A DNA stretch of 64,000 nucleotides from Candidatus Pacearchaeota archaeon. GTDB taxonomy: Archaea > Nanobdellota > Nanobdellia > Pacearchaeales > GW2011-AR1. The stretch covers positions 698 to 64,697 of the forward strand of contig JAVZZP010000002.1 of assembly GCA_038885615.1 (NCBI GenBank), given 5' to 3'. The translations under genes were made by a program, and so were the position numbers. This document shows, piece after piece, positions 1 to 42,900 of the stretch. Under the pieces are notes generated by a model. The model did no database searches and was not told where the DNA came from. It was given only the letters and a program-made list of their open reading frames with translations. The first letter of the stretch is position 1; each line of letters opens with the position of its first letter.

Positions 1-1376
1 TTTTAAATGGTTTTATTGAGAGCAGTGGTAGTGGTGTTGTTTTGTCCAATGTTCAAAATTCCCTTGTCAGGAATGTCAGCTTTTCAGCTAACAGCGTCGG
101 GCTTAATTTGAGCGGTTCAAATAATTCTGTTGAGAATTCTAATTTCTTGAATAACGAGCTTGCTCTTTCTATGACTGGCAATAATCAGCTCCTTTTCTCT
201 AACTCTTTTGGAGAGATTAAATGGGTTGGCGACCTTGTTGTCGGCGGAAAAACTATGGTGAATAATTGTGAAGGCATGCCTTTCCCTGAGTGTTTTATAG
301 AAGTAACTAAATACTCAAGAATGGATAGTTCCACTATTTCAATAGGAAAGGGCAGCATAACAATAAGTTCTTTGCTTCTTAATGATAATCCTTCATTGAA
401 TTCGTCGGTTGTTGTGAAGTTCTACGATGCTTACAGAACTGGTTTTTCACCGAAATTCTTGGGAATGGGGGTTTCTGGAATAAGGTGCGACAATACGACA
501 AATCCTTCATGCTTCAACTCAACTTCGTTGATGGCTACGCCGGCGGTTTTCAACGCTTCTAATGTGGGAGATGGAAGAATCTCATTAGGTTTCATGCCTA
601 GATACAAGAAAGAGATTTCAGGCCATCAAGGTTGGAATTTGGTCGGGTTTTCTAATCCAGCTGTTAAGAGAGAGGAAAACTCTATTTATACTGATTTGGA
701 GATAAATCTTTCAAAAGGATGGAATATCGTGAATTATCCTGTTCCTAATGAAAGGAATTTCAGAGAAGTTGTTTTTATTGAGAATGCTAGCTTGGCGAAT
801 GCTTCAAGAGAGGGCAAAGTAAGGGGAGGGCTTGTTTATTACGGAAAAGCGGCCAATGAGAATGCTCCTTCTTTCAAGTTCGTCGGGGTGAGAAATTCAG
901 GCGAGAGCACTTTAAGAGAAAACAGGGGCTATTACATTTATGCAGAGGAAAACACAACATTAAAGCTTAAAGGAGTTGTCCCTGTCCAGCACGAAGCCGC
1001 AGTCAAAAACTACAAAGTCAAAATAGGCGACATCCACTTCATCAACAAGTCAAGCGGAGAGGTGAGAAATATAACGAGGGCGGTTGAGGTTTTGAATAAG
1101 AGTTTGTGTATACCTTCTAAGAATAATACTATTTCAAGAGAGGGAATGTGGTTTGGTTATGGTATTTGTTATTGCTTAATGAATAATCCCAACTTTTGTG
1201 GTTGGAGATATACAAATTCAACGATTTACTGGTGGGATGCTGCTGGCGGAAATCCAAAGAATGCTGACTTTCAAATGAAATCTTATGATAGATACACAGA
1301 TGAGTTAGATGCATCCAAAGGTGTTTTCGTGAAGTTTAATTATCCTGATTTAGCAATATTGCTTCCTGGCGAATAA
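1..1376 (+). CDS. secreted parallel beta-helix-repeat surface protein, 5' partial (frame open to window start)
   Basis: ORF 42..1376; same frame has no stop back to nt 3. Repetitive N/S/V-rich strands (NVSFSANSVGLNLSGSNNSVENSNF) resemble right-handed beta-helix (NosD/pectin-lyase-like) repeats. Many N-x-S/T sequons. Confidence 0.45.
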   Translation, partial: LNGFIESSGSGVVLSNVQNSLVRNVSFSANSVGLNLSGSNNSVENSNFLNNELALSMTGNNQLLFSNSFGEIKWVGDLVVGGKTMVNNCEGMPFPECFIEVTKYSRMDSSTISIGKGSITISSLLLNDNPSLNSSVVVKFYDAYRTGFSPKFLGMGVSGIRCDNTTNPSCFNSTSLMATPAVFNASNVGDGRISLGFMPRYKKEISGHQGWNLVGFSNPAVKREENSIYTDLEINLSKGWNIVNYPVPNERNFREVVFIENASLANASREGKVRGGLVYYGKAANENAPSFKFVGVRNSGESTLRENRGYYIYAEENTTLKLKGVVPVQHEAAVKNYKVKIGDIHFINKSSGEVRNITRAVEVLNKSLCIPSKNNTISREGMWFGYGICYCLMNNPNFCGWRYTNSTIYWWDAAGGNPKNADFQMKSYDRYTDELDASKGVFVKFNYPDLAILLPGE

Positions 1377-1526
1377 GATTAAGTGTATTAATAGTGATGA
1401 CTTGTAGGCAAGATTATATTTTATGACTAAACTTCTTAAGATTTAAAGAAATAAAAAATAAAAAATTCGCGCGCGGCTTTTTGTTTTTAACTTCTTAATA
1501 GTAACAACCGAAAAGTTTAAATACTT

Positions 1527-2279
1527 GTGTTTTTTTATTTATGTATGGCAAAGAAAAACTTGAAGAGCATAATCGCAGCAGGATTAGTTGGTGCTTCTAG
1601 TTTATTTTTACCTACAAAAGTAAAAAGCGATTTAGTAGATGTTTTCTTATATGAACCTTCTAGGGAAGATGTAGGAGGTTCAATGATGACCTTGCGAAAT
1701 ATGGAAGGCGGGGAGTTGGGTTATGATGACATAGATGATCCTTTTTGGCCTGGAAGACCTCCTGGAAGTCCTGATGTTTGGTTAAGAGTTTATTCTGATC
1801 AATGGAAAGTTTATTATAATGAATCTTCTTTTCCACCAATTCGTGTTGATGCTCGTCCTTATTCTGGTCCGGATGCGAATCAGCCATTTCCGTTGAGGGC
1901 GGATGTTCAGGGATTAGGAGAGGGAGAGACAATCAGCGCGAACAATTGTTATTTCACTTTCCAAGCTCAAAATGGTTATGGGACAAATGGCGGTTATAGA
2001 GATGAGGGATTGAGAGATATCTACACTTGGACTTTAAGTTTAAATCCAACTTATGCTCAATTCACAGACGGAAGCTACACAAAGAGCGGAAGCTTTGATT
2101 TGAGACAAGGCCAAACATTCAATACACCTGCTTTTAACATTTATAATGTTCCTGGAAACACAAAATTTCTTGAATGGACTTTACAAGCAATACCAGAGCC
2201 ATCTACAATAAGCTTTATTGGTCTAGCTGGTGGAGCAGCTCTTTTAGGTAGAAGATTAAGAAGAAAAAAAGAAAAATAA
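1527..2279 (+). CDS. secreted protein with C-terminal PEP-CTERM-like sorting signal
   Basis: N-terminal Sec-type hydrophobic segment (IIAAGLVGASSLFLP). C-terminus IPEPSTISFIGLAGGAALLGRRLRRKKEK = PEP motif + hydrophobic helix + Arg-rich tail. Confidence 0.5.
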   Translation: MFFYLCMAKKNLKSIIAAGLVGASSLFLPTKVKSDLVDVFLYEPSREDVGGSMMTLRNMEGGELGYDDIDDPFWPGRPPGSPDVWLRVYSDQWKVYYNESSFPPIRVDARPYSGPDANQPFPLRADVQGLGEGETISANNCYFTFQAQNGYGTNGGYRDEGLRDIYTWTLSLNPTYAQFTDGSYTKSGSFDLRQGQTFNTPAFNIYNVPGNTKFLEWTLQAIPEPSTISFIGLAGGAALLGRRLRRKKEK

Positions 2280-3771: not shown

Positions 3772-4101
3772 TTGAAAACTCAGATGAGAATTTTTTTAGA
3801 TGCTTTAAAAAAATCATGGAAGAATATAGAAGATGAATTCTTTTGCAGAGCAGATAAAATTTTCAATAAAAAACTAAACGAAAAATTTAATTGTTATTTA
3901 ACGACAATAGAAAGATGCTCTTACGATATTAAAGAAAATTATTTTTTTGTTTCTTTTTTTTATTCTTTACCGAAAGCACTTTTGTCAATTGGTCATGAAA
4001 TTTTTCATTTTTATTTTCACAGATTTTATTTTAAAGAATTAGAGAAGAAAATAGGAAAAGATAAAACAAACGACTTTAAAGAGGTCTTAGCGGTTTATTA
4101 A
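3772..4101 (+). CDS. hypothetical small protein with HExxH motif (GHEIFH)
   Basis: ORF only; possible minimal metallopeptidase-like motif. Confidence 0.25.
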   Translation: MKTQMRIFLDALKKSWKNIEDEFFCRADKIFNKKLNEKFNCYLTTIERCSYDIKENYFFVSFFYSLPKALLSIGHEIFHFYFHRFYFKELEKKIGKDKTNDFKEVLAVY

Positions 4102-4253: not shown

Positions 4254-4556
4254 ATGGAAGAAAAGCTTGTTCGTGATAAGGTTCCAGAGATTATTGAAAA
4301 AGAGGGAAAAAAAGCAGTTTTTAGAAAAGCCTCCGACGGGGAATATTGGACAATGCTTAAAGTGAAACTAAAAGAAGAAGTTGAGGATTTTTTAGCAAAC
4401 CCGATTGAAGAAGGGCTTGTTGATATTTATGAAGTTATGAATGCTATTTATGATTTTATGAATGTGAAGAAAGAAAACTTGAAAGAGCTCGCAGAGAAAA
4501 AAAGAGAGGAAAAAGGTTCTTTTAAGGAGAGAGTTGTTTTAAAGAAAGTTGAATAA
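4254..4556 (+). CDS. all-alpha NTP pyrophosphohydrolase-like protein (MazG/PRA-PH superfamily)
   Basis: LVRDKVPEIIEKEG...EEVEDFL...LVDIYEVMNAIYDF pattern typical of house-cleaning NTP-PPases. Confidence 0.5.
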   Translation: MEEKLVRDKVPEIIEKEGKKAVFRKASDGEYWTMLKVKLKEEVEDFLANPIEEGLVDIYEVMNAIYDFMNVKKENLKELAEKKREEKGSFKERVVLKKVE

Positions 4557-4590
4557 AAAACTTAATAAACACTTTTTCTTTTGATTTTTT

Positions 4591-6339
4591 ATGATAACTC
4601 GCAAAGATTTAATAAAAAAATATTTGGACTTTTTCAAGGAGAAAGGGCACAAGGAAGTGCAAAATGCTTCTTTAGTTCCTGAAAATGACCCTTCTGTGCT
4701 TTTCACTACGGCAGGAATGCATCCTTTAGTGCCTTTTTTGCTCGGCGAAAAACATCCTTCGGGAAAAAGAATTTGCAATGTTCAAAGATGTGTAAGAACA
4801 GGCGACATTGATTCTGTCGGGGATAGTTATCATCACACTTTTTTTGAAATGCTTGGAAATTGGAGTTTAAACGATTATTGGAAAGAAGAGGCAATAAAAA
4901 TGACTTTTGAATTTCATACAAAGATTTTGAAAATTCCTCTTGAAAGATATGCTGTTTCAGTGTTTAATGGGGACGAAATTGCCCCTCGGGACGAAGAAAC
5001 AATAAAAATCTGGAAAAAACTTGGAATTAAAGAAGAAAGAATTGCTTTGCTTGGAAGAAGTGATAATTGGTGGGAAACAGCAGGAGCAGGTCCTTGCGGG
5101 CCTTGTACAGAGCAGTTTTTTTACAAAGGAAAAAATCCTCCGGAAGTTTTTAATCCAGAAGATAAAAATTGGGTTGAAATTGGCAACGATGTTTTAATGG
5201 AATATGTTAAAGACAAAGAAGGAAACTACAAAAAATCTTCTTTAAAAAATATTGATTTTGGCGGAGGAGTTGAAAGAACACTTGCTGTCTTAAATGGTTT
5301 GGAAGACAATTATTTAACAGATTGCTTTTTGCCAATAATAAGAAAAATAGAGGAATTATCTGGAAAAGAATATGGAAAAAATGAAGAGGAAACAAGAGCA
5401 ATGAGAATTATTGCTGATCATTTGAAGGCAAGTGTTTTTATTCTTGGCGACGGAGTTTTGCCTAGCAATGTTGAAAGGGGTTATGTCTTGAGAAGATTAA
5501 TAAGAAGAGCAATAAGATTTGGAAGAAGTTTAGGAATAAAAGAATTCACAAAAAAAGTTGCTTTGGCAGTTTTTGATATTTACGACGACTATGGCATTCT
5601 GAACAAAAATAAAATTTTCATTTTGGACGAGCTTGAAAAGGAGGAAAAAAGATTTTTAGAGACATTGGAAAAAGGAATAAAAGAGTTTGAAAAAATAACA
5701 GAAAAATCAAAAGAAATTTCAGGAAAGGACTCTTTTTTGCTTTACCAAAGTTTTGGTTTTCCGTTGGAATTGACAAAAGAGTTGGCAAAAGAAAAAGGAA
5801 TTTCCGTTGATGAAAAAACTTTTTATGAAGAATTAAAAAAACACCAAGAATTAAGTAGGAGTTTGTCGGCAGGAGTTTTCAAGTCGGGGCTTGCAGATGA
5901 TTCGGAAAAAACAAAAAAATTGCATACGGCAACGCATTTGCTAAATGAAGCTTTAAGAGTTGTTTTAAACGACAGAAACATTTGTCAAAAAGGAAGCAAC
6001 ATAACTCCTGAAAGATTAAGATTTGATTTCAATTTTCCGAGAAAGCTTACAAGCGAAGAATTGAAAAAAGTTGAAGATTTAGTCAATAAAAAAATACAAG
6101 AAGGTCTTAAAGTTGATTTCAAAGAGATGTCTGTGGAAGAAGCTAAAAAAATAGGCGCCCAAGGAGTTTTTGAGTCAAAATATGGTGATAAAGTGAAGGT
6201 TTATTTTATAGGCGATTTTTCAAAAGAAATTTGCGCAGGACCACACGTTTCTAACACAAAAGAGCTTGGCAAGTTTAAAATTATTAAGGAAGAATCATCA
6301 AGTGCAGGAGTTAGAAGAATTAAGGCAGTTTTGGAGTAG
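4591..6339 (+). CDS. alaS: alanyl-tRNA synthetase, short bacterial-type form (catalytic + editing domains, no C-Ala domain)
   Basis: N-terminus similar to bacterial AlaS (LVPENDPSVLFTTAGM; cf. E. coli LLFTNAGM). Editing-site HxxxH (HTATHLL) and CxxxH (CAGPHV). Only 582 aa. Confidence 0.85.
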   Translation: MITRKDLIKKYLDFFKEKGHKEVQNASLVPENDPSVLFTTAGMHPLVPFLLGEKHPSGKRICNVQRCVRTGDIDSVGDSYHHTFFEMLGNWSLNDYWKEEAIKMTFEFHTKILKIPLERYAVSVFNGDEIAPRDEETIKIWKKLGIKEERIALLGRSDNWWETAGAGPCGPCTEQFFYKGKNPPEVFNPEDKNWVEIGNDVLMEYVKDKEGNYKKSSLKNIDFGGGVERTLAVLNGLEDNYLTDCFLPIIRKIEELSGKEYGKNEEETRAMRIIADHLKASVFILGDGVLPSNVERGYVLRRLIRRAIRFGRSLGIKEFTKKVALAVFDIYDDYGILNKNKIFILDELEKEEKRFLETLEKGIKEFEKITEKSKEISGKDSFLLYQSFGFPLELTKELAKEKGISVDEKTFYEELKKHQELSRSLSAGVFKSGLADDSEKTKKLHTATHLLNEALRVVLNDRNICQKGSNITPERLRFDFNFPRKLTSEELKKVEDLVNKKIQEGLKVDFKEMSVEEAKKIGAQGVFESKYGDKVKVYFIGDFSKEICAGPHVSNTKELGKFKIIKEESSSAGVRRIKAVLE

Positions 6340-8183: not shown

Positions 8184-10244
8184 ATGCCAGAAAAAAAAGC
8201 ATGTTTGATTATTACAGAGAAACCGCAAGCAGCAGAAAAGATAGCTTTTGCTCTTTCCGATGGAAAAGACAGAAAAATTAAAGAAAAAAGTGGCGTTAGT
8301 TATTTTGAATTTGAGAAAAACGGGGAAAAATTTTTTGTTGGTTGTGCTGCGGGGCATTTATTTGGTTTAAAGCAAAAAAACGGGAAAGGTGAATTTCCTT
8401 CTTTTGATATAGAGTGGGTTCCTTCTTATGAAACAAAAGAGGCCTCTTTTACAAAGAAATTTTATGATTTGCTTAAAAAATTAATTAAAAATTCAGATGA
8501 GTTTATTGTTGCTACTGACTATGATGTTGAAGGAGAAGTTATTGGTTGGAATGTTCTAAGGTTTTTAGGAAAAAAAGATTTAGACAAGCAGGCAAAGAGA
8601 ATGAAATTCTCGTCTTTAACAAAAGAAGAATTAAAAAAATCTTTTGAAAATCTTTTACCGACAATAAATTGGGGAGAAGCAGTAGCGGGAGAAACAAGAC
8701 ATTATTTAGACTGGTTTTATGGAATAAATCTTTCGAGAGGTTTGATGAAGGCCATTTCAGAAACAGGAAAATTTCAAATTTTATCTATCGGTAGAGTGCA
8801 AGGACCAGCATTAAAAATAATTTACGACAAAGAATTAGAAATAAGAAATTTTAAACCAGAACCTTATTGGCATGTTTTTATTAAAGTTAAAGATGGAAAA
8901 AATCAATATTTAGAACTACTATATGAAAAAGTTATTAGGGAGGAAAAAGAGCTTTCTAAGTTTAATCTGCTTAAAGGACAGAAAGGAATTGCAAAAACCG
9001 AATTTAAAGAAGAAAAAATTTCTCCACCACTACCTTTTGATTTAACAACTTTGCAGACAGAATGCTACAAAAATTTTGGTTTAACCCCCTCGCAAACGCT
9101 AAGAATTGCTCAAAATCTTTATTTAGAGGGTTTAATTTCTTATCCGAGAACATCTTCTCAAAAATTTCCTAATATAAATCTAAAGGAGATTTTAGAAAAA
9201 CTGAAATCTTACACTGATTTGGTTAAATTTGCTGTTCGTGAAAAACCAACAGAAGGAAAAAAAACCGATCCGGCTCATCCAGCAATTTATCCTACAGGTG
9301 AATTGAAAAAGTTGGAAGGAAAAGAAAGGCAGGTTTATGATTTAATTGTGAGAAGGTTTATTTCTTGTTTTTCTGAAGATGCCTCTGTTTTGAAAAAGAA
9401 AGTTTCTGTTAGTGTTTTAAATTTTGTTTTTTTAACTAATGGTGTTGAGTTTAAGAAAAAAGGCTGGATGTATGTCTATCCTTCTTCTGTTAAAGAGAAG
9501 GAAATTCCGACAATAGAAGGAGAAGTAGACATAAAAGAAATAAGAATAGAACAAAAACAAACCCAACCGCCAAATCGTTATAATCCTTCATCTTTAGTTA
9601 AAGAGCTTGAAAAAAGAAATCTAGGAACGAAGGCGACGAGAGCAGCAATAATAGAAACTCTTTATGATAGGGGCTATATAAAAGGAAATCAAATAGAGAT
9701 AACTCCCTTAGGAATTAAAGTTGTTGAAAGTTTGCTTCATGTTTCTCCTATAATCTTAGATGAAAAACTAACAAGAGAGTTTGAAAAAGAAATGGAAAAC
9801 ATTTCAAAAAAGAAGAAAAGTTGGTTTGATAGCCAGAAAAAAGTTATTGAAAAAGCAAAAGAAAACATTATTCAAATAACAAATTTAATGAAAGAAAACT
9901 TTAAGAAAATTGGCGAGGAGCTTTTAGAAGCAAGAAATGAAATAATAAAGAAAGAAAACGAGGAGAAAAATTTGACATTATGCCCTGTCTGTAAGAAGGG
10001 AAATTTAAGAATTTCTTTCAATAAAAATGCTAAAAGATTTTTTATTTCTTGTTCAAATTATCCTGAATGCAAAACAACTTTTTCTTTGCCGCCAAATTCT
10101 TTAATAAAACCTTCAAAAAACGAGCAAGGGGAAATGGAGATGTGTCCAGACTGCAAAGATTTCCCTTTAATGCTTTCATTAAAGAAAGGAAAGAGGCCTT
10201 GGAAGTTTTGTTTTAATCCCGCTTGTCCTGGGAAGAAGGTTTAA
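8184..10244 (+). CDS. type IA DNA topoisomerase (Topo I/III-like) with C-terminal Zn ribbons
   Basis: TOPRIM N-terminus, catalytic-Tyr region LISYPRTSSQ, C-terminal CPVCKKGN / CPDCKD zinc ribbons. Confidence 0.85.
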   Translation: MPEKKACLIITEKPQAAEKIAFALSDGKDRKIKEKSGVSYFEFEKNGEKFFVGCAAGHLFGLKQKNGKGEFPSFDIEWVPSYETKEASFTKKFYDLLKKLIKNSDEFIVATDYDVEGEVIGWNVLRFLGKKDLDKQAKRMKFSSLTKEELKKSFENLLPTINWGEAVAGETRHYLDWFYGINLSRGLMKAISETGKFQILSIGRVQGPALKIIYDKELEIRNFKPEPYWHVFIKVKDGKNQYLELLYEKVIREEKELSKFNLLKGQKGIAKTEFKEEKISPPLPFDLTTLQTECYKNFGLTPSQTLRIAQNLYLEGLISYPRTSSQKFPNINLKEILEKLKSYTDLVKFAVREKPTEGKKTDPAHPAIYPTGELKKLEGKERQVYDLIVRRFISCFSEDASVLKKKVSVSVLNFVFLTNGVEFKKKGWMYVYPSSVKEKEIPTIEGEVDIKEIRIEQKQTQPPNRYNPSSLVKELEKRNLGTKATRAAIIETLYDRGYIKGNQIEITPLGIKVVESLLHVSPIILDEKLTREFEKEMENISKKKKSWFDSQKKVIEKAKENIIQITNLMKENFKKIGEELLEARNEIIKKENEEKNLTLCPVCKKGNLRISFNKNAKRFFISCSNYPECKTTFSLPPNSLIKPSKNEQGEMEMCPDCKDFPLMLSLKKGKRPWKFCFNPACPGKKV

Positions 10245-22354: not shown

Positions 22355-23386
22355 ATGGGAGTACAAATAGCAGATATTATTCCTAGGAAAGAAATAGATA
22401 TTTCTCTTTTAAAAGGAAAGACAATTGCAGTTGATGCAATGAACACTCTTTATCAATTCTTAACTACGATAAGACAGCAAGACGGAACACCGCTGATGGA
22501 TTCTAAAGGCAAAATAACCTCTCATTTGTCAGGGCTTTTTTATAGAAATATTTCTTTGCTTAGCGAAGGAATAGAACTTGTTTATGTTTTTGATGGAAAA
22601 CCATCCGAGTTAAAAAGAAAAGAACTTGAAGAAAGAGCTGAAAGAAAAAAAGAAGCATTAGAAAAATATGAGGAAGCAAAAGAAAAAGGGGAAATAGAGG
22701 AGATGGCTAAATACTCAAGGCAGTTTGTTAGGATAAATGAAGAAATAATTAAAGAAAGCAAAGAACTTTTATCTGCCTTAGGAATTTCTTTTGTTGAGTC
22801 AATAAATGAGGGAGAAGCAGAAGCCTCTTTTTTGGCAAAATCTAACGTTGTATGGGCCTGTGCTTCACAGGACTATGATTCTTTACTTTATGGAACACCT
22901 AGGCTGATTAGAAATTTAACTCTTGCTAGAAAAAGAAGAACTTCTTCAGGAGTTTTGGTAGATGTTAATCTTGAGTTGATAGAGTTGCAGCATGTTTTAG
23001 AAACATTACAAATAGATAGAGATGGTTTGATTTGTTTAGGAATTATTGTTGGGACAGATTTTAATCCGGGTGGAATCAAAGGACTAGGTCAAAAAAAAGC
23101 TCTTGAAATTGTTAGAAAATACAAATATCCTGCATTGATTTTTGATTATCTGCAAAAAAGCGGAAAATATGTTATTGATTTTATTTGGACAGATATTTTT
23201 AAGGAATTTAAAGAATATAAAGGAAATAATATTTCAAGAGTAGAAAAGAAAAAAATTGATTTTGACAAAGTTAAGAAGATCCTTCTTGAGAGAGATTTTT
23301 CAGAAGAAAGAATAGACAATGCCTTAGAAAAACTTAAAGAGATTCAAGAACAGAAAAAGCAAGTTTCCCTTAAGGATTTTTTTTAG
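22355..23386 (+). CDS. fen: flap endonuclease FEN-1
   Basis: MGVQIADIIP N-terminus; XPG-N/XPG-I motifs (AVDAMNTLYQF, GEAEASFLAK); C-terminal PIP-like tail. Track ORF starts earlier at TTG 22238. Confidence 0.85.
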   Translation: MGVQIADIIPRKEIDISLLKGKTIAVDAMNTLYQFLTTIRQQDGTPLMDSKGKITSHLSGLFYRNISLLSEGIELVYVFDGKPSELKRKELEERAERKKEALEKYEEAKEKGEIEEMAKYSRQFVRINEEIIKESKELLSALGISFVESINEGEAEASFLAKSNVVWACASQDYDSLLYGTPRLIRNLTLARKRRTSSGVLVDVNLELIELQHVLETLQIDRDGLICLGIIVGTDFNPGGIKGLGQKKALEIVRKYKYPALIFDYLQKSGKYVIDFIWTDIFKEFKEYKGNNISRVEKKKIDFDKVKKILLERDFSEERIDNALEKLKEIQEQKKQVSLKDFF

Positions 23387-24183
23387 GGAGAATCTTCTTT
23401 TATTTCTTCTAAGATTTTTATTTCGAAGTTTATTTTATTGAATTCTTCATTTATATAAAAATCTCTTATCGAAGTAAAGTTATAAATTGAGTAAGTTATA
23501 GTTTTATTATTTTTATTTTCTTTTTTTTCTTCTACTTTAACATCGAATAAGTTTTTTGTTATGTTGTTCATACAATCCATGTCTTTTTTACATTCAAGTG
23601 TTTTGTGTATGTCGTAAAAAGGAAGAAGACCTATTTTTTTAAAAATTATCTCTGCATTCAATTTATCTTTTTTTGTAATTTCTGGTACTTTGAATTCTAT
23701 TTCTTTTAGTTTAATATTTATTTTTTCATCATCTAAAAATAAATCAAAGTTTAGGTCTTTTATTTTTTCTATTAAAATTTTTTTGTAAGTATAATTGTTT
23801 TTATTTTGAAAAGAGTTATATTCGTTAATTGCTTTTATTTTTAAGCAGTTTTTAGTTGCATTATTTAAACTTTCATTTATATCTTTTTTCATTTTATCAA
23901 AAAATAAAATCTCTTCAATTTCTTTTTCTTCGTAGAATTTTTTGTTTTTAGTTAAATTGTAGTAACTATAATATGTACATTCTTCAAGATATTTTTCTAA
24001 TCTATACTCCATGTCTTTTTTTTCCAGTTGAATTTCTTCTATACTATCATAGCCTTTCAATCTAAATTCAAACTTTTCATTGTATGAAGCAATTTTGACT
24101 AAAGCATAAACACAAATAATTAAAACCATTATTGTAAATATTACTATATCTAAGTTAGCTTTTTTATTTTTCATTTTTAGCAT
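23383..24183 (-). CDS. pilin-like protein with class-III-type signal peptide (KKA|NL + hydrophobic helix)
   Basis: N-terminus MLKMKNKKANLDIVIFTIMVLIICVYALV; last gene of a 6-gene minus-strand operon. Confidence 0.45.
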   Translation of the reverse strand: MLKMKNKKANLDIVIFTIMVLIICVYALVKIASYNEKFEFRLKGYDSIEEIQLEKKDMEYRLEKYLEECTYYSYYNLTKNKKFYEEKEIEEILFFDKMKKDINESLNNATKNCLKIKAINEYNSFQNKNNYTYKKILIEKIKDLNFDLFLDDEKINIKLKEIEFKVPEITKKDKLNAEIIFKKIGLLPFYDIHKTLECKKDMDCMNNITKNLFDVKVEEKKENKNNKTITYSIYNFTSIRDFYINEEFNKINFEIKILEEIKEDSP

Positions 24184-24800
24184 TCTTCTATGTAATATTT
24201 AATTAAAGCAAAAGATTTTTCTGGAAAGAAGAAACTATAACCGTAACTTAAATCTTCTATATCTGAAAATAATTTAAAATCAGTCTGGAAAGGATATTTT
24301 TTTCCTCTAGGGTATGAAAAACAATAATTTGCTCTTCCTTTTGAGTATGCAGAAACACCATCACCTATATAAGATAGCCCATTAACTATAAAAAAAGAAC
24401 TACAAATTTTGATTATTTTGTTTTTATCATTTAATCTTTTTAGATAGTCTTCCATTTTAGGATTTATTTTATTACTGCAAAATGGGTCAATCTTTTCTAT
24501 AAAATCTTCTGTCAAATAATAAAATTTTTTATTTTCCACTTCTTCTTCAAATAAATAAAAAAGTGCTCTTTGTTCCTCCTGTGATAAAAAAGCAGCTGTT
24601 CCTACAGTTTTTACATCATCTACAATGTTATTCTTTATGTCTTTAATATTTTTTAAGCCAGCAAAAAAAACAAAAATCATCAGAATAAAAAAAATAACTA
24701 TTGTTGCTACAAACCATGAGAGCGTACTTGAAATTTGTGCTTTTTTATTTTTTTTCATTTTAAACAAAACTTTTTTTATTTCCATGATTTTGAGAAGCAA
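24177..24800 (-). CDS. pilin-like protein (KKA|QI class-III-type signal, probable start MKKNKKAQ at about 24761)
   Basis: MKKNKKAQISSTLSWFVATIVIFFILMIFVFFAGL. Confidence 0.45.
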   Translation of the reverse strand: MLLKIMEIKKVLFKMKKNKKAQISSTLSWFVATIVIFFILMIFVFFAGLKNIKDIKNNIVDDVKTVGTAAFLSQEEQRALFYLFEEEVENKKFYYLTEDFIEKIDPFCSNKINPKMEDYLKRLNDKNKIIKICSSFFIVNGLSYIGDGVSAYSKGRANYCFSYPRGKKYPFQTDFKLFSDIEDLSYGYSFFFPEKSFALIKYYIEEC

Positions 24801-25272
24801 CCAATAACTCCACGATTAAGATTTCTTTTTTATTTTCTGTTTCGTTAAAGTAATTTACGAGAATTTTTGTTTGGGAGCAAGCAGGAAGGTATGGCCCTTT
24901 TTGTTTAATTGTGCAATCATTTTCATACGAGAACTGGCCGAATCTAAATTTTTTTATTTCAAATTCATATTCATTCTTTATTTTTAAATGTAAAAATCTT
25001 GTTGTATTTTTTTCTTCTTTAAAAGATTCTTTGTTTAAACCACATTCATCAAAAAACGCCCCCTCATTCCACAAAAGAACTTCATTTTTTAGATAACCAT
25101 TCTTTATAATGCAGTCTAAAATCTTTTGTTGAAGCATAGATATTTCTTGAGCTCTGACATCTATCGGAGAACTAAAATAATTTAGTGTAACTATTGTTAC
25201 AACTAGTCCAACTAATGCTAAAGAGACAAACCACCACAAAGAGAAAATTTTTTCATCGGCTTTTTTATTCAT
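24760..25272 (-). CDS. pilin-like protein (NKKA|DE class-III-type signal)
   Basis: MNKKADEKIFSLWWFVSLALVGLVVTIVTL. Confidence 0.45.
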   Translation of the reverse strand: MNKKADEKIFSLWWFVSLALVGLVVTIVTLNYFSSPIDVRAQEISMLQQKILDCIIKNGYLKNEVLLWNEGAFFDECGLNKESFKEEKNTTRFLHLKIKNEYEFEIKKFRFGQFSYENDCTIKQKGPYLPACSQTKILVNYFNETENKKEILIVELLVASQNHGNKKSFV

Positions 25273-25700
25273 TTTATTCCTATTAAAAGTTTTCCTCCTA
25301 TTGTCCTATTTTGATTATCTACATCTAAATGAATTTTTGTTAAACTCTCATCAATTTCTATTTTAGAGAAAAAATGATAAACAAAACCCCCTTCTTTCTT
25401 TGTTTTAATTTGAACAAAACTTTCTGTTGTATTTATTATTATCATTTCTTCCTGCATAAATTTTGAATCCATTCTATTTTTTTGAGCATTTTTTATTAAG
25501 TCAGTTATATTTATCTCAAAGAAATCCCCTCTTTCTGCCCTATTTAGCATTAACCCAATTTTTTTTGCATAAATTTCTTCATAACGGAGAGCCTCAGAAG
25601 AAACTCTGTTAACAAAAATGAGCATTAACGACATAAAAATTATATTTAGAACTATAAAAATAACAATAGGATAAATCATATCGGCTCTTTTATTTTTCAT
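25269..25700 (-). CDS. pilin-like protein (KRA|DM class-III-type signal)
   Basis: MKNKRADMIYPIVIFIVLNIIFMSLMLIFV. Confidence 0.45.
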   Translation of the reverse strand: MKNKRADMIYPIVIFIVLNIIFMSLMLIFVNRVSSEALRYEEIYAKKIGLMLNRAERGDFFEINITDLIKNAQKNRMDSKFMQEEMIIINTTESFVQIKTKKEGGFVYHFFSKIEIDESLTKIHLDVDNQNRTIGGKLLIGIK

Positions 25701-25737
25701 TTTTTTATAAATAAAACTAATATTATAAATTTAACTT

Positions 25738-26772
25738 TTAACCAAGGCTTGCAATATAAAATTCTCCTTTTTCGTTAAATTTTTTAAATCCCTCACTTGT
25801 GTAATCTAATAAAAAAACCCCTGCTGCATACTCTGCTTCCGGAAACATTCCTTCGACTTTTAAAGATTTTAAATGAATCCAGTCTCCTGCTCCCCAACCA
25901 GCAACGCCGCCGATCATCGCGCCAGCAAAAGGGTGCCCTGCCTTAAAACCTAATAATCCTCCAACAATTCCGCCAACAGAAGCACCTATAAGCGCCCCCA
26001 TTGCTGTCGGTCTTGCTTCAACATACATTATTGCTTGGGTTGTTGTTAGATTTATTTTAGTATTTAGAAAATCACTAATTAATTCACTACTCTGAGGATT
26101 TCCTGAACTAGTGCTTCCGCTTCCAGAAACGCTTTGACCAAAAAGGATATTCATTGTTTCCCCATCATAAGAATTTCTTAAAAAATCCCAATAAGAAACA
26201 TTCATTTGGGGATGTTTATATCTCAATAAGTAATCATTAAAACCTTCTAACTCTTTTAATTGGGGATTATTATCTTTTTCTGTAACTGTTTCATCAAATT
26301 TTATTCTTGAACATATTATTCCAACTGAACCAACAGATTTTTTTACAGTTATTTCTCTCTTGAAAATTGCATAAGCCCCCCTTCCTAACATGTCCCAGCA
26401 GTCAGCCATTTCTCGTGCAAGCAAAGTTTTTATCTGTTTTTCTGCTTTTTCTTTATCTTTGCTTATTCTATATGTAGAGTATTTTCCTTCCAAAGAACCA
26501 AAATCTTTCTGGCATTCTCCTTTAAGTGGCCACCTGTTTGTTGTTACACAAATTTTTTTTGTTTTGCATTTTAATTGAACTAAGTCTTTTGCTTGTGACT
26601 CTAAAATGCTGTCAGGAATTGTTCCCCTCAAAACAGCACTTGTCTTGCATGTTTCTCTGTCTAAGTCTTCTGTTTTAATTAATTGATAATAAGTTAAAGC
26701 AATAATAACAATTGTAACAATAACGATTATAATTGCCACAATCATTCCAACACTCATTTCTCCTTTTTTCAT
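25738..26772 (-). CDS. pilin-like protein (KKG|EM signal) with C-terminal glycine-zipper domain
   Basis: MKKGEMSVGMIVAIIIVIV; C-terminal GALIGASVGGIVGGLLGFKAGHPFAGAMIGGVAGWGAG (GxxxG repeats). Confidence 0.45.
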   Translation of the reverse strand: MKKGEMSVGMIVAIIIVIVTIVIIALTYYQLIKTEDLDRETCKTSAVLRGTIPDSILESQAKDLVQLKCKTKKICVTTNRWPLKGECQKDFGSLEGKYSTYRISKDKEKAEKQIKTLLAREMADCWDMLGRGAYAIFKREITVKKSVGSVGIICSRIKFDETVTEKDNNPQLKELEGFNDYLLRYKHPQMNVSYWDFLRNSYDGETMNILFGQSVSGSGSTSSGNPQSSELISDFLNTKINLTTTQAIMYVEARPTAMGALIGASVGGIVGGLLGFKAGHPFAGAMIGGVAGWGAGDWIHLKSLKVEGMFPEAEYAAGVFLLDYTSEGFKKFNEKGEFYIASLG

Positions 26773-26901
26773 ATTTCTCCACTAGTCAATTTTTTAATTA
26801 AAAAATATAAAGCGCCAGACAAGAGGACAGTAATTAAAAACCAGATTATATATTTTCCTAATTGTTCAAAATTGCCTTGGGATTTTTTTTGAAATTTTAT
26901 T

Positions 26902-27882
26902 CTAAATTTCATTTTTTATATCTTCTAATTTTTTTCTTATTTCAACAATTTTTTTGATTATAGGAGTTCTTTTTTCTTTTAATTTTTTATATTCTTCATC
27001 ACTTATCTCAGAACCTTTTAATCTTAAAATATATTTGCTAAAAAAACTTATTTTTTGTGATTCATAATTAGTTTTATATTCTATGAAAAGCTTATTAATT
27101 TCAACTGACTCTTTTTCCAATTCACTTAACTCATTTCTGATCTGTTGAATTTCATTTTTTTTATTTTCATTATTTATTGTTTTTTCCAATTCACTTAACT
27201 CATTTTTGATGTCACCTACATTTTTTAAAATTGCAATATGTAATTCATTTAGTGCACTATCAAGTTTTGAGCCACTTTCTGCTTCTAATAAAAAAGAATC
27301 TATAAATTTGTCAATCGTCCATTCTTTTTCTACTCTATTTTTTATAACTACCTCTTTTTCTTTTACTGTTATTTCTAATTCTGTTGGACTCTCTATATAT
27401 ATTGGGAGATTATTTGTATAACCTTCTTTTATTATGTTGATACTTTCTATAATCGTATTAATTATTCCTTCTGGAGGATTGTTATTAATTGTTATAACTT
27501 TTTTACTTGTTTTTTTACATATGCCTTTACTTTCACATTCTCTTAAAGAATTTTTTTTTGTTGCAATTGTTGGAGTTGGACAAATACAAACACAATTTTC
27601 TCCACATGTTTGTGGTTTTTGTTCAAAATTTTGATATGGCCAAGCCAAAATCCACCACCCCTTCGGACTCTCAATAAAAGCATAACCTACTTCTCCTTCT
27701 TTTAAGGAGTTAATAGTATCTTCGATTTCTCTCATCGCAACTTTTGCTTGTTCGTATTCTGTTTTTTGTATTAAAATTCCGATAAGTTTGAACATAAGAA
27801 ATATCATTAAAACAATTCCAATAACACCAAGAACAATTTTTCCAGCTTCTTCTCCGAACCAAAGCCCCTTTTTGTTTTTCAT
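26902..27882 (-). CDS. pilin-like protein (KKG|LW signal) with Cys-rich module and repetitive coiled-coil C-terminus
   Basis: MKNKKGLWFGEEAGKIVLGVIGIVLMIFLMF; CGENCVCICPTP; repeated NELSELEK units (24-bp DNA repeat at about 27114 and 27182). Confidence 0.4.
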   Translation of the reverse strand: MKNKKGLWFGEEAGKIVLGVIGIVLMIFLMFKLIGILIQKTEYEQAKVAMREIEDTINSLKEGEVGYAFIESPKGWWILAWPYQNFEQKPQTCGENCVCICPTPTIATKKNSLRECESKGICKKTSKKVITINNNPPEGIINTIIESINIIKEGYTNNLPIYIESPTELEITVKEKEVVIKNRVEKEWTIDKFIDSFLLEAESGSKLDSALNELHIAILKNVGDIKNELSELEKTINNENKKNEIQQIRNELSELEKESVEINKLFIEYKTNYESQKISFFSKYILRLKGSEISDEEYKKLKEKRTPIIKKIVEIRKKLEDIKNEI

Positions 27883-35784: not shown

Positions 35785-35856
35785 GGCTCTGTAGCTTAGT
35801 GGTAGAGCGCCGCTCTCATAAGGCGGAGGTCGCGAGTTCAATTCTCGCCAGAGCCA
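35785..35856 (+). tRNA. tRNA-Met/Ile2 (anticodon CAT), elongator-type
   Basis: GGCTCTG acceptor stem, D-arm GCTTAGTGGTAGAGC, anticodon loop CTCATAA, T-arm GGTCGCGAGTTCAATTCTCGCC; no intron, CCA not encoded. Confidence 0.8.
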
Positions 35857-35894
35857 TTCGCAAGATTTTTAATGTCCTATTTTTATATTGTTTT

Positions 35895-37424
35895 ATGGAG
35901 AATAAAAGAGGTGCTATTAAAAATATTTTGCTTGTTATAGTTTTGAACTTTTTTGTTGTTTTCTCTTCAGCGCAAAATGAGATCTCTATAAATTCGCGAT
36001 TAAATGACTTGGACGCAGAGTTTTTTATTAAATTTTTAGATGAATGTAGCAGTGACCCTTTTGATTCATATGATTTTATTTTGCCTCCTCTTATAGATGA
36101 TTATTCGCTTCTTTTTTCAAGATATAAGCAAGAGAATATTAATCTTTCTGTTGATTGTTGGAATCCTCGAGGAACAATGAACAAAACTCTTGATTTGGTT
36201 TATAAAGTTGTAAGCCCTGCGAATCAAACAGGAGAACTTTTTTTTTATTGGGATCCTTCTGATTTTTCTGGGCAGTATTTTAGAACAAATCCTGTTTTAG
36301 TTGATTTAGAAACAGGGCAAAGAATTAATATGTCTTCGCAATCTTCTGCTTCTTTTTCAAATTCTCAAAGAGAGAGAAATCTTTTTTTAGAGATGTATTT
36401 TGAGGGGTGCGGTGATGGAATAATAAATTTAGATGAGCATTGTGATGGACAAAATCTCGGAGGAAAAACCTGTGTTTCTTTGGGCTATGCCGGAGGAAAT
36501 TTAAGTTGTAATCCAAGCACTTGCCGTTTTGACCTCAGGCAATGTTTTGATGAGCAGGGAAACTTTCCTTCGAATGATGGTGGAGGTTCTGGTGGGGGCG
36601 GCGGTTCGGTACGAGAAGAAAAAAAATGCATAGACGAATGCGTACTTGGTTCTAGAAGATGTGTTTCAAACTCAAGTTTAAGGGTTTGTGGGGACTTTAA
36701 TGGAGATAATTGCACAGAATGGGGCAACGAAGAAAAATGCTTAGGAATTTCTCCTTTTTGTAAAGATGGATTTTGCTATGGTTGCTTGTCTGATAGAGAT
36801 TGCAGAGATGGTTTTTGTATTAATGGAAAATGTGAGATAAATTGTAACTTAACATGTAAGGATTTAGGTTACGAGTGCGGAGAATACTTTTTTTGTGGAA
36901 AGATTGTTAGTTGTGGGAATTGTTCTTCAGGTTTTTGTAATAAAGGAAGGTGTTCTAAATTGCCTGAAGATATTTCTAAATTAAAGGAAGGTGATTGTGA
37001 AGCAGATTTTTTATGTTCTCCTTGGTCTGAATGCAAAGTTTTTTTTGATTTTGAAAAGGTAATTTTGGGAAAAGATTGGTTCAAAGGAAAAAAAGAAAGA
37101 GTTTGCTTTGATAAGAATAAGTGTTATTCAGGTTTTATTGAGAAAGAAGATTGTTACCTTAAAAGGGAAGTTTTTTTTAGAGAGGTAACCTTGTGCGGAA
37201 AAAAATATATAGAGATTTATGATAAGAAGACAAATGAGCTTATTTCTAGGTTGACTGATTCTAGATATTCAAAAAAGTCGCTGGTCGAAATTTTTTTGTT
37301 GCCGGAGGTTTCTTTTCTTTGCGAAGAAGATAGGGAGTATTATAAAATATCTTTGTTTGATAGAGTAATGTTTTTTCTTAATTTAAGAAAGGTTTTGGGG
37401 GTTTTTGAATGGATAAAAGGATAA
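35895..37424 (+). CDS. secreted Cys-rich repeat protein (myxococcus-type CGDG...CDG repeats, EGF-like modules, Gly-Ser linker)
   Basis: Track ORF 35799.. reads through the tRNA; real start is MENKRG. Signal peptide, then CGDGIINLDEHCDGQN, GGGSGGGGGS, many C-x-C modules. Confidence 0.5.
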   Translation: MENKRGAIKNILLVIVLNFFVVFSSAQNEISINSRLNDLDAEFFIKFLDECSSDPFDSYDFILPPLIDDYSLLFSRYKQENINLSVDCWNPRGTMNKTLDLVYKVVSPANQTGELFFYWDPSDFSGQYFRTNPVLVDLETGQRINMSSQSSASFSNSQRERNLFLEMYFEGCGDGIINLDEHCDGQNLGGKTCVSLGYAGGNLSCNPSTCRFDLRQCFDEQGNFPSNDGGGSGGGGGSVREEKKCIDECVLGSRRCVSNSSLRVCGDFNGDNCTEWGNEEKCLGISPFCKDGFCYGCLSDRDCRDGFCINGKCEINCNLTCKDLGYECGEYFFCGKIVSCGNCSSGFCNKGRCSKLPEDISKLKEGDCEADFLCSPWSECKVFFDFEKVILGKDWFKGKKERVCFDKNKCYSGFIEKEDCYLKREVFFREVTLCGKKYIEIYDKKTNELISRLTDSRYSKKSLVEIFLLPEVSFLCEEDREYYKISLFDRVMFFLNLRKVLGVFEWIKG

Positions 37425-39913: not shown

Positions 39914-42900
39914 ATGAAAAAGAGAGTGGTTTTTTCAAAAGTGTTATTATTTAGCCTATTTGTGCTAGTTTTTTTAGGTTTTTCCTTCGGAGCTTACACA
40001 ATAACAAAAATCTATAACTACACAGCAGAAGCTGTTTTAAATAATACAAAAGCAAATAATAATTTTCTTCATTTAGAGATTAATAATAGTGTTGAAAAAT
40101 ATTCTAATTTTAATGGTTTGTCTAATAATTACATAGGTTTGGGAAATATTAATGCTTATAAAATACCTTCTAAAACAATATCAGCTTGGATTTATAGAAT
40201 TAATGGAGGGACGCACGGAGTTTTTTCCTCTGCAAATAATAATTATTTCGTTGCAATTACAGGAACACAACCATATATAAATTATGCTAATTCAACAGAA
40301 AGCCAGAAACAATATTATGCTCCACCAAATTCTGCACCTTTAAATCAATGGAACCATATTGTTTGGGTTTATGATGTTAATGAGAGTAATGTCATAACAA
40401 GAATTTATGTTAATGGAAATTTAGTCTATAATAACACTCAAACAGACGGCTATTCTTCTACTTATGGAACTAATTTTGTAATAGGTGCTTTTAGTCCTTC
40501 TGTTATAAATTTTAATGGGAGCATAGATGATTTAGCTTTTTTTAATAGAGCTTTAAACCAAACAGAAATTCAAGAGCTATATAATTTAGGTAGAATAAAT
40601 TGTCCTTGTAATATTAGCGGAATAGTTAGTTTATGGGATTTTGATAATAATTTAAATGATTACACAGATAAAATAAGCGGATATAATGGTGTTAAATATG
40701 GGAATGTTTTTATACAAGCAGATGAAAGTTTGCCGGGAAATCATCCTTATGGCTCTCTTGTAGCTTATTGGAGTTTTGATGGAGATACAAATAACATATC
40801 TTATGATTTAAGTGGGAATAACTTAAATAGTGTTTATTATAATGGTTTAGTTAATAATAATTCCTGCAGTTTAGGTTATGGGAATTGCTTAACATTTGAT
40901 GGAGTTAATGATTATTTAGGAATAACAAATACGGCTTTTAATATATCAACATTTTCAGCAAGTTTATGGGTTTATATTGCTAATGAAACTACAAATAATC
41001 AAGGGATAGTTGGTATAGATAATGGTTATTATAATGGCTGGAGATGTGTTTATCTAAACACTAAAAGAATAGTTTGTCAGTTTGGAAGAGGAAGTCCAAA
41101 TACACCTTATGATTTATATTCTCCTATAAACTCTTTTCAAGCTAATAATTGGAATCATTTAGTTGTTACAAGGAATGTAAGTGGAAATGTTTCTATTTAC
41201 ATAAATGGGAATTTTTCTTCTTCGGGAATAAGCACTAACTTCACCTTAAACCAAGCTAATTTTAGATTAGGAGTAGATTTTGGCGGAATAAGTTATCTTA
41301 ATGGTTCTATTGATGAATTTATGTTTTTTAATAAAGCTTTAACACCAATAGAAGTTCAAAATATTTACAATAATCAATCACAAAGGTTTAAAAATAATGG
41401 AACGGCAACATTAAACTCAATACAACTAAATGAAACAGGAAACAATTTATTAAATTGGAAAATAAACAGCACGCAATTATTTAATACAAAGATTTATGGA
41501 AGTATTGGGGAATGTAATAATCAAACAAGTTTTTGTGGAAATAATACAGCAAACTATACATTTAAAGATGAAGTTGAGTTTATTAATGGAGAAGCAAACT
41601 TCACAATAAACACAAGTACAACAAACATTCTTCCAAGATTAAGGTTAGAAAGTCCGGGATTTTATACTCCGTATATTTTTACAAGTTCTGATTTTATAAT
41701 ATTCTCTCTGAAAGTTAATTTTTCCGGTGATACAACTAAAGAAGGAAATTTTTCGCAGGATTGGATTTATGCTAAAGTAGAGGGAGATCTTACAGGAGAT
41801 GTCAATATAACTCTATGGAATTCCTCTGGTTTAGTTGATTTTTTTATCGGAACAGAAAAGAATTTTACAAATCTTCAAGAAGATGCTTATTTTTTGAATG
41901 CAACAATAAAAGACATCGCCAACCAAACATTTTCAACAGAGACAAGAAAGATAATTTTAGACAGGACTCCTCCAACTGTTTTTATATTAGAACCAACAAA
42001 TAATTATTATTCTAATTCGAGCTCAAACTCTTTTAGATTTAATCTTTCAGATGAGCTTTCAGGGCTTAAAAACATTAGCTTAAGAATCTATAATTCTTCA
42101 GATGTTGTAAATACAACTTTTAAAGAAATTGCTGGCTACACAAAAGAAGAAGAAATAAATATTTCCTTAAATGACGGAGAATACTTATGGTATATAGATG
42201 TTTATGATACGGCAGAAAATTCTTTTGTTAGTCAAAACTATAGCTTAATAATAGACACTTCTTCTCCGAAGTTTTATAACTTAACTTACACTCCCAGCTA
42301 TTTAGGAGAAATAGACCCAAATACAACAATAACTTTCACTATAAATGCAACAGATGAAAGAACAAACATTTCTTCTGTAATACTAGAGATAAGAAATGAA
42401 ACTGATTCCCAATGGTATAACTTTCCCATGAACTTAATAGAAGGGGATTCTATTTCAGGTATTTACCAATACAACTTTACAACTTCTGAAGAAGAAACAA
42501 ACTACACTTTCAGAATATTTGCCAATGACTCTTCAAACAACATAAACAGAACTCAAGACATTTTCATAAGGTCGGAGTGGGACTGCACGTGGAATTTAAC
42601 AATAGAAGGATTAACAGGGAGCCATGTATTTGGCTTCAACCAAATAAAAGAAATAGGAAACATAACTTTCATAAATGATGGAGACAAAGAATACAAAAAT
42701 AACTCAGGTTGTTACATAAAATTCTCTCTTGAATACAATTCAACAATGATTGGTGAGTTCAGCTGGACATATATATCAAGGGCATTGCTTTCAGGTTATT
42801 ATCCTGGCTTAAGATTTAACCAAAGCTCTAATTGGGTTACTCCTTTTGATTTAGTAATAGAAAACAAAACAAATTTAACTCTTCCAATTTTAGGAGTTTT

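Follow-up and report, generated by a model that had tools for sequence, protein, structure and literature searches.

A gene for a small secreted protein with a C-terminal tail of the PEP-CTERM type lies near one end of a 64-kb stretch of DNA from a Candidatus Pacearchaeota archaeon (64,000 nt of contig JAVZZP010000002.1, assembly GCA_038885615.1; hereafter, the window). PEP-CTERM/exosortase systems occur in Pseudomonadota, Cyanobacteriota, Verrucomicrobiota and other outer-membrane bacteria, and their substrates often number at least 20 per genome (Haft 2023, bioRxiv 10.1101/2023.06.07.544157). The archaeal context originally claimed for the gene is borne out by the window itself, which has a GC content of ~30% and carries CDC48, a family-B DNA polymerase, FEN1/XPG and RadA/Rad51.

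The open reading frame (ORF) that the original prediction placed at 1527..2279 on the plus strand is present, and its C-terminus reads ...TLQAIPEPSTISFIGLAGGAALLGRRLRRKKEK as described there. GTG 1527 is just the first in-frame start past a stop codon, and ATG 1545 is the likelier start. The product from ATG 1545 is 244 aa long (MAKKNLKS...) and identical to NCBI MEM4181873.1, which is encoded on a 69,451-bp contig and recorded as 'PEP-CTERM sorting domain-containing protein [Candidatus Pacearchaeota archaeon]'. The following features are recognized at the locus:

42..1376, plus strand: 3' part of the partner gene, encoding a secreted surface protein of giant size (NCBI MEM4181872.1; 690 aa, cut off by the contig end)
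1499..1523, plus strand: putative promoter element resembling a transcription factor B recognition element (BRE) and TATA box, TAGTAACAACCGAAA (1499-1513) and then TTTAAATA (1516-1523)
1545..1628, plus strand: Sec-type signal peptide MAKKNLKSIIAAGLVGASSLFLPTKVKS, recognized by inspection, with a Lys-rich n-region, a hydrophobic core, no lipobox Cys and a putative cleavage site
1629..2189, plus strand: beta-sandwich ectodomain of ~190 aa, unnamed family, conserved core RVYSDQ...DARPYSGPDANQPFPLRADVQG
2190..2279, plus strand: PEP-CTERM-type tripartite tail, I-PEP-ST, helix TISFIGLAGGAALLG and basic cluster RRLRRKKEK
3772..4101, plus strand: small ORF with an HExxH motif (HEIFH), outside the sorting signal, with no Pfam or NCBIfam match

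Within the tail, PEP is encoded at 2193-2201, the hydrophobic helix TISFIGLAGGAALLG at 2205-2249 and RRLRRKKEK at 2250-2276, followed by the stop codon at 2277-2279. In protein coordinates, PEP occupies residues 217-219 (28 residues from the C-terminal end), the hydrophobic stretch residues 221-235 and the basic cluster residues 236-244. With TIGR02595, the hidden Markov model (HMM) proposed earlier as a check, the protein reaches 16.5 bits (E = 0.011) and just passes the curated cut-off of 16; with Pfam PF07589 it falls just below the cut-off (19.3 versus 20.7). Judged alone on HMM scores, the tail is borderline. An NCBIfam scan (E <= 1) matched PEP-CTERM-type models only, in agreement with the earlier assignment to the PEP rather than the PGF-CTERM form. 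No archaeal CTERM model, whether of the PGF, PEF, VPXXXP, PIP, PEFG or CGP type, was matched by the window protein at this threshold, and none is among the families matched by 25 members of its family.

A small family and its giant partner

Relatives of the window protein are few. A word-indexed search returned only six (three labelled Pacearchaeota and three Verrucomicrobia), with 57-68% identity, and an exhaustive profile search of 1.84 billion cluster representatives returned 22 clusters. The family is thus real, yet very small and unnamed. Its members share the layout of the signal peptide, which ends in ...(N/A)AD, and 14 of 25 carry PEP at 25-34 residues from the C-terminus. In these 14 the motif is strict: I or V precedes in all, P-E-P is present in all, and after one variable residue there is T (13/14) or S (1/14). 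TIGR02595 is matched by 12 of the 25 members, with a best E-value of 1.3e-5. The members without a PEP tail have a Flg_new_2-like extension instead, or are fragments. Because the motif recurs in 14/25 members, the window tail is an authentic, family-typical PEP-CTERM signal and not a chance likeness, and the arrangement of PEP, transmembrane (TM) helix and Arg cluster noticed originally is a genuine tripartite signal of this type.

The ectodomain contains no Pfam domain. A first AlphaFold2 model of the protein was poor, with a predicted local distance difference test score (pLDDT) of 53. With a 25-sequence alignment, the mean pLDDT rose to 77.8, and the model is all-beta over residues 29-215 with a C-terminal helix at 221-243. 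Foldseek gave no convincing neighbours of the ectodomain in PDB (TM-score <= 0.2) or BFVD (best TMq 0.37). The modelled fold offers no clue to function beyond 'beta-sandwich ectodomain'.

Gene context was retrieved for 14 loci, five on AT-rich contigs and nine on bacterial ones. The AT-rich contigs (28-35% GC) are the window, L001 (GCA_038886595.1), L006 (GCA_026414385.1), L017 and L019, and four of them are demonstrably archaeal. L001 encodes ArgRS and an S13_N-type ribosomal protein; L017 encodes transcription factor S (TFS_arch, TIGR01384, 91 bits versus a cut-off of 64.75) and an archaeal-type signal peptidase I. L019 has no diagnostic archaeal gene, and its two flanking genes encode surface proteins of the window's kind.

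In all five AT-rich contigs the family gene is preceded by a gene for a very large secreted protein, which adjoins it in four and lies three genes off in L017. In the window's contig this partner, MEM4181872.1, has a head of the DUF285/BspA-LRR type, a middle part that resembles a NosD beta-helix and a C-terminal module that is conserved, and it has no C-terminal membrane anchor. The C-terminal ~450 aa of the partners in L017 and L019 are homologous to the product of window ORF 42-1376 (26% identity, E ~1e-27 to 1e-28), and the L006 partner is 61% identical to it. The head is exchangeable, with GLUG repeats in L001 and L017 and DUF285/BspA-LRR in the window's contig. Partner proteins are rich in sequons, with 3.6-4.4 N-x-S/T per 100 aa (3.6 for window ORF 42-1376) versus 0.4-0.5 in cytosolic proteins.

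The family proteins of L017 (P0010) and L019 (P0019) are only ~30-35% identical to the window protein and branch far from it in the tree. Despite ectodomains at this level of identity, three of the four full-length copies on archaeal-type contigs retain PEP unchanged.

A further element shared among these loci lies directly upstream of the gene. The exact 15-mer TAGTAACAACCGAAA, together with TTTAAATA or CTTAAATA, is found ~30 nt before the start codon in the window, L001, L006 and L017, once per locus. We infer that the element at 1499..1523 is an archaeal BRE/TATA promoter. Since its TATA-like box begins 29 nt upstream of ATG 1545, a leaderless mRNA, or one with a very short leader, is implied.

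Bacterial copies and the direction of transfer

The nine bacterial contigs (L002/L003, L004, L005, L011, L012+L014, L013, L015, L018 and L020) are mostly from Verrucomicrobia. They have 44-65% GC, and their genes include cbb3 oxidase, LexA/ImuB/DnaE2, GH20, sulfatase and LeuA. One more family member carries a Marinimicrobia label.

The GC content at third codon positions (GC3) was compared between the family gene and its neighbours. In archaeal-type contigs the gene has a native GC3: 0.25 versus 0.18-0.30 for the neighbours in the window, 0.30 versus 0.15-0.22 in L001, 0.27 versus 0.18-0.28 in L017 and 0.21 versus 0.19-0.24 in L019. In bacterial contigs the AT content of the gene, or of its 5' half, greatly exceeds that of the flanking DNA. 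The values are 0.26 versus 0.43-0.50 in L004, 0.43 versus 0.72-0.78 in L005, 0.27 versus 0.76 in L012, 0.43 versus 0.72-0.85 in L018 and 0.43 versus 0.57-0.68 in L020; in L011 and L015 the gene has a GC3 of 0.28 and 0.29 on contigs of 58% and 53% GC, respectively. The raised GC content of the first 2.3 kb of the window (38-39%) was considered as a sign of bacterial import and rejected, as GC3 shows it to be an effect of amino acid composition. The window gene has a total GC of 39% because it encodes a Gly/Pro/Ala/Arg-rich protein, not because of foreign codon usage.

Several Verrucomicrobial alleles are mosaics in which the 5' half is AT-rich like archaeal DNA and the 3' half GC-rich like the host (L002 9848-10714; L012 9962-10426 with L014 1-1179; L005 3-515). 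In L002, the first 120 codons have a GC3 of 0.20-0.40 and the remainder 0.72-0.75. The large contigs L012 and L014 come from the same metagenome and share an overlap of exactly 127 nt within the gene; across them GC3 rises from 0.27 through 0.55 to 0.77. The switch point falls in the most conserved core, DARPYSGPDANxPFPLRADVQG. These mosaics suggest repeated homologous replacement by archaeal DNA. At the nucleotide level, Pacearchaeota L006 and Verrucomicrobial L005 share 91% identity over 216 nt, and the window gene is about equally similar to Verrucomicrobial L012 (77% over 446 nt) and to its counterpart in Pacearchaeon L001 (79%).

One bacterial locus preserves more than the family gene. 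In the 54.5-kb Verrucomicrobial contig L004, the family gene lies in an AT-rich island of ~3 kb (~8.6-11.6 kb of the locus). The island also carries a 3' piece of a partner gene, 41% identical to window 42-1376 (E = 7e-34), an ORF homologous to window 3772-4101 (60% identity, E = 2e-34) and a recognizable degenerate copy of the archaeal-type upstream element. The homologue (L004 9248-9919) is longer, at 223 aa, and lies between the partner-gene fragment and the family gene. This island is a stretch of Pacearchaeota chromosome inside a bacterium.

Codon composition, the co-transferred block of neighbouring genes and the carried-over promoter show that the visible recent transfers ran from AT-rich DPANN archaea into bacteria, mainly hot-spring Verrucomicrobia, and did so several times. 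Some of them apparently replaced the 5' half of a resident bacterial allele. Acquisition by the archaeon of a bacterial-style surface protein, one of the two readings offered originally, is contradicted for these visible events, as the gene has a native GC3 and a partner in archaeal-type contigs, the bacterial copies look foreign, and the L004 island carries archaeal neighbours.

Directly upstream of the gene, several Verrucomicrobial loci have a conserved, GC-rich, non-coding element of ~400 nt (L011 ~9500-9970, L012 ~9450-9950 and L013 ~1-570). No convincing ORF was found in it, and the L013 copy, which was scanned, has no Rfam match. In the window, tRNA-Ala 2913-2985 was considered as an integration site; this is unsupported, since the gene pair is native and syntenic elsewhere without a tRNA.

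Anchoring, processing and related systems

We interpret the window protein as a small, C-terminally anchored cell-surface protein of a DPANN-resident family, which is paired with a giant surface protein and has been passed repeatedly to bacteria, and we give this reading a probability of roughly 0.55. The family gene would be expressed in DPANN archaea from the conserved BRE/TATA-type promoter, and the Sec signal peptide would export the ~190-aa all-beta ectodomain. The PEP motif, TM helix and Arg/Lys cluster would then stop transfer and hold the protein in the cytoplasmic membrane, presumably with the N-terminus outside and the C-terminus inside. Because the gene pairs with an anchorless, sequon-rich giant surface protein, its product would most likely tether a two-component adhesin or S-layer-like structure to the membrane, as its anchor or stalk. 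The anchoring role itself, whether the tail is processed or not, is quite likely. C-terminal anchoring is an ordinary solution in this organism, because a giant native surface protein encoded in the window at 58348-62361 is held by a plain C-terminal TM anchor.

Processing of the tail would require an enzyme of the exosortase/archaeosortase family encoded outside the window; in its absence the tail would be a plain C-terminal anchor. As stated originally, no such gene was found in the 64-kb window (six-frame ORFs, HMM and consensus search). The exosortase HMM was built from three real exosortases and a consensus that scores 101.7 bits on TIGR04178; the pseudo-consensus retrieved real exosortases on plasmids. 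An unfiltered search (--max) of every six-frame ORF with 60 aa or more, in the window as well as the fetched loci, gave a best E-value of 0.045. An AT-styled exosortase consensus run against 5.8 billion proteins yielded 128 matches to PF09721, 127 of them without an organism label, and is uninformative on DPANN. A solved exosortase structure was sought as a query and none was found. ORF 50500-51315, the sole 7-TM ORF of suitable size in the window, was rejected as an exosortase as it resembles FlaK/prepilin peptidase. A six-frame scan of the window (~60 genes) found no second tail of PEP, hydrophobic helix and basic cluster, and there is no exopolysaccharide (EPS) locus near the family gene.

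Recognition of the tail by a sortase is made plausible by the invariance of [IV]PEP-x-[TS] in archaeal-context copies that share only 30-35% identity, and if bacteria were recipients and not donors, the constraint on PEP must act in archaea. We regard recognition and cleavage of the tail in the archaeon as possible, at somewhat poorer than even chances. The suggestion that the protein is an archaeosortase substrate of unusual type, the other reading offered originally, is possible and is favoured by the same conservation of IPEP-x-T. The boldest extension is that Pacearchaeota and related DPANN archaea possess a true sorting system of the PEP-CTERM type, with a still unrecognised exosortase or archaeosortase anchoring the base of their giant adhesins, and that the repeated, very recent gene flow marks a physical association of Pacearchaeota with bacteria, possibly a host relationship. 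We hold this to be doubtful.

Several observations weigh against the interpretation as a whole or in part. All described PEP-CTERM systems are from diderm bacteria, and all described archaeosortases from halophiles or methanogens (bioRxiv 10.1101/2023.06.07.544157; PMC6098224). In the literature searched, including the supplements of DPANN comparative-genomics studies, no link was found between archaeosortase, exosortase or PEP-CTERM and DPANN. Exosortase and archaeosortase are absent not only from the window but from every fetched archaeal locus, and there is one such tail among ~60 window genes, whereas typical PEP-CTERM genomes have many. In a sister Pacearchaeon (L001), protein P0002, which NCBI names hypothetical, has PEAP in place of PEP: two point changes turn PEPST into PEAPT next to an identical stretch of ectodomain, which fits relaxed constraint. 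Synteny is all that points to the anchor-plus-canopy role. In addition, a neighbour-joining tree nests the two full-length Pacearchaeota sequences among Verrucomicrobial ones, and long residence of the family in bacteria as well is evident from several Verrucomicrobial alleles whose 3' halves are GC-adapted. Given these last two points, the family and its PEP tail could ultimately have come from either domain, and an ancient bacterial origin of the tail module is conceivable.

The strongest rival explanation draws on the same points. It holds that Pacearchaeota captured the gene from a bacterium with PEP-CTERM and exosortase, for example one of the Verrucomicrobia, and that PEP is now vestigial and the tail a TM anchor only. 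Verrucomicrobia are among the outer-membrane bacteria to which known PEP-CTERM systems are confined (Haft 2023, bioRxiv 10.1101/2023.06.07.544157), they supply the closest named relatives, and in the tree they enclose the Pacearchaeota sequences; the alleles of L002 and L014, with their GC-rich 3' halves, attest to long residence there. The family also has weak HMM similarity to the bacterial PEP-CTERM families PepA, FxDxF and NF038129, and a vestigial motif would accommodate the PEAP of P0002 and a window with neither sortase nor second tail. However, the GC3 of the gene fits its surroundings in all five AT-rich contigs and looks foreign in every bacterial one, and deep members, only 30-35% identical, occur on AT-rich contigs together with the same partner and, in L017, also with the same 15-mer. 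The other Pacearchaeota-type genes and the upstream element of the L004 island fix that event as a transfer from archaeon to bacterium, and PEP is kept in three of four full-length archaeal-type copies. We therefore consider bacterial capture unlikely.

The family could alternatively be equally old in both domains and have been shuttled by a mobile element or virus, in which case neither DPANN archaea nor bacteria would be its source and the AT-rich signature would be that of the vector. The bacterial contexts are indeed patchy and variable: an IS200-type transposase adjoins the gene in L018, a toxin-antitoxin pair adjoins it in L020, and a terminase and the LexA/ImuB/DnaE2 cassette lie near the L004 island. 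However, a search of 2.9 million viral contigs returned no relative, the archaeal flanks are housekeeping or surface-protein genes with conserved synteny and not mobile-element genes, and the genes that entered L004 along with the family gene are its neighbours on the archaeal chromosome, so that a shuttle of this kind is improbable.

It is more improbable still, to the point of being negligible, that the first ~2.3 kb are bacterial DNA misjoined to an archaeal contig by assembly or binning: the gene pair does lie ~0.7-3 kb from the contig end, at 38-39% GC versus ~30% elsewhere and with its upstream gene annotated as partial, many family copies sit at contig ends and the exact L012/L014 overlap resembles an assembly-graph branch, but the GC3 of the gene fits host genes once its protein composition is allowed for, independent assemblies of different data sets (L001, L017, L019 and L006) likewise connect the pair to other archaeal genes, the L004 island mirrors the window neighbourhood with partner fragment, ORF 3772-4101 homologue and family gene, and an archaeal-type promoter stands directly upstream.

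Other observations concern neighbouring and alternative sequences. In L001, an 85-aa out-of-frame ORF (4354-4611) overlaps the P0002 tail and resembles a C-terminal '...DLxxW...FFRV' domain that is found at the end of L004 10866-11603, L014 and P0013; it probably remains from an alternative C-terminal architecture. The window encodes two further giant surface proteins. The first, at 39914-44776, is 1620 aa long, contains Laminin_G_3 domains and has a sequon density of 4.4 N-x-S/T per 100 aa. The second, the TM-anchored protein at 58348-62361, has 1337 aa and 6.7 N-x-S/T per 100 aa, is without a PEP or PGF motif, and is followed by a MoxR-type AAA ATPase gene (62358-63329). A type-IV-pilus/archaellum-like block comprises a T2SSE-family ATPase (45876-48119), a 10-TM FlaJ/TadC-like protein (48144-50354) and the FlaK/prepilin-peptidase-like 7-TM protein (50500-51315), and a run of small pilin-like ORFs, each with a single N-terminal TM segment, occupies the minus strand at 23383-27882. 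The alanyl-tRNA synthetase at 4591-6339 looks unusually short, at 582 aa, with catalytic and tRNA_SAD domains, and may be truncated or split. The ORF at 35799-37424, for a 541-aa Cys-rich secreted protein, has a listed GTG start that overlaps tRNA-Met 35785-35856, so that translation must really begin at a later position (MENKRGAIKN...). In L019, the gene after the family gene encodes a similar Cys-rich protein.

The cell surfaces and attachment machinery of ultrasmall DPANN archaea are almost unknown, and the protein described here is a concrete candidate for how their giant adhesin-like proteins stay on the cell. If the signal is functional, a conserved PEP-type tail on a DPANN-resident family would extend sortase-type surface processing to ultrasmall, host-dependent archaea, and PEP-CTERM sorting in DPANN would be the first outside diderm bacteria. 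Independent of any sortase, recurrent transfer of one surface-protein gene from archaea to bacteria, which is a rare direction, is an unexpected by-product. It makes Verrucomicrobia testable candidates for physical contact with Pacearchaeota, whose hosts are not known.

The window protein can be compared with three known systems. Like the bacterial XrtA/XrtB substrates (TIGR02595, PF07589), it combines a signal peptide, a non-enzymatic beta-rich ectodomain and a tail of [VI]PEP, TM helix and Arg cluster. It also resembles PepA, the flocculation protein of Zoogloea resiniphila (NF033554), although the match is weak (24.6 bits, residues 136-241, mostly tail) and far below the cut-off of 80, and the ectodomain belongs to a separate, unnamed family. 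Unlike in bacterial PEP-CTERM systems, the host is a monoderm DPANN archaeon, neither an exosortase nor an EPS locus is nearby, and there is a single such protein in 64 kb. In architecture, the window protein is PEP-CTERM-like, and it may also take part in a functional PEP-CTERM/exosortase system.

ArtA of Haloferax volcanii is needed for a step that couples cleavage of the PGF-CTERM tail to lipid attachment (PMC6098224; bioRxiv 10.1101/2023.06.07.544157). Processing of this kind is what is envisaged for the window tail. Like the S-layer glycoprotein of that archaeosortase A/PGF-CTERM system, the window protein is an archaeal surface protein with a tripartite C-terminal signal. It differs in that its motif is PEP and not PGF, PEF or PEFG, and in that the documented hosts of archaeosortases are halophiles and methanogens and not DPANN. 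Related archaeal signals whose motifs come close to PEP are PEF-CTERM, the partner of ArtC, and PEFG-CTERM.

In the S-layer of Sulfolobales, adjacent genes encode SlaA, which is large, glycosylated and anchorless, and SlaB, which is small and exported and has a C-terminal TM helix. Unlike SlaA, the large protein described here is a beta-helix, adhesin-like protein with variable heads; its pairing with the family protein is suggested by synteny, and no homology is claimed. The analogy is a functional one: as in SlaA/SlaB, neighbouring genes would supply an anchorless giant and a small protein held in the membrane by a C-terminal TM helix.

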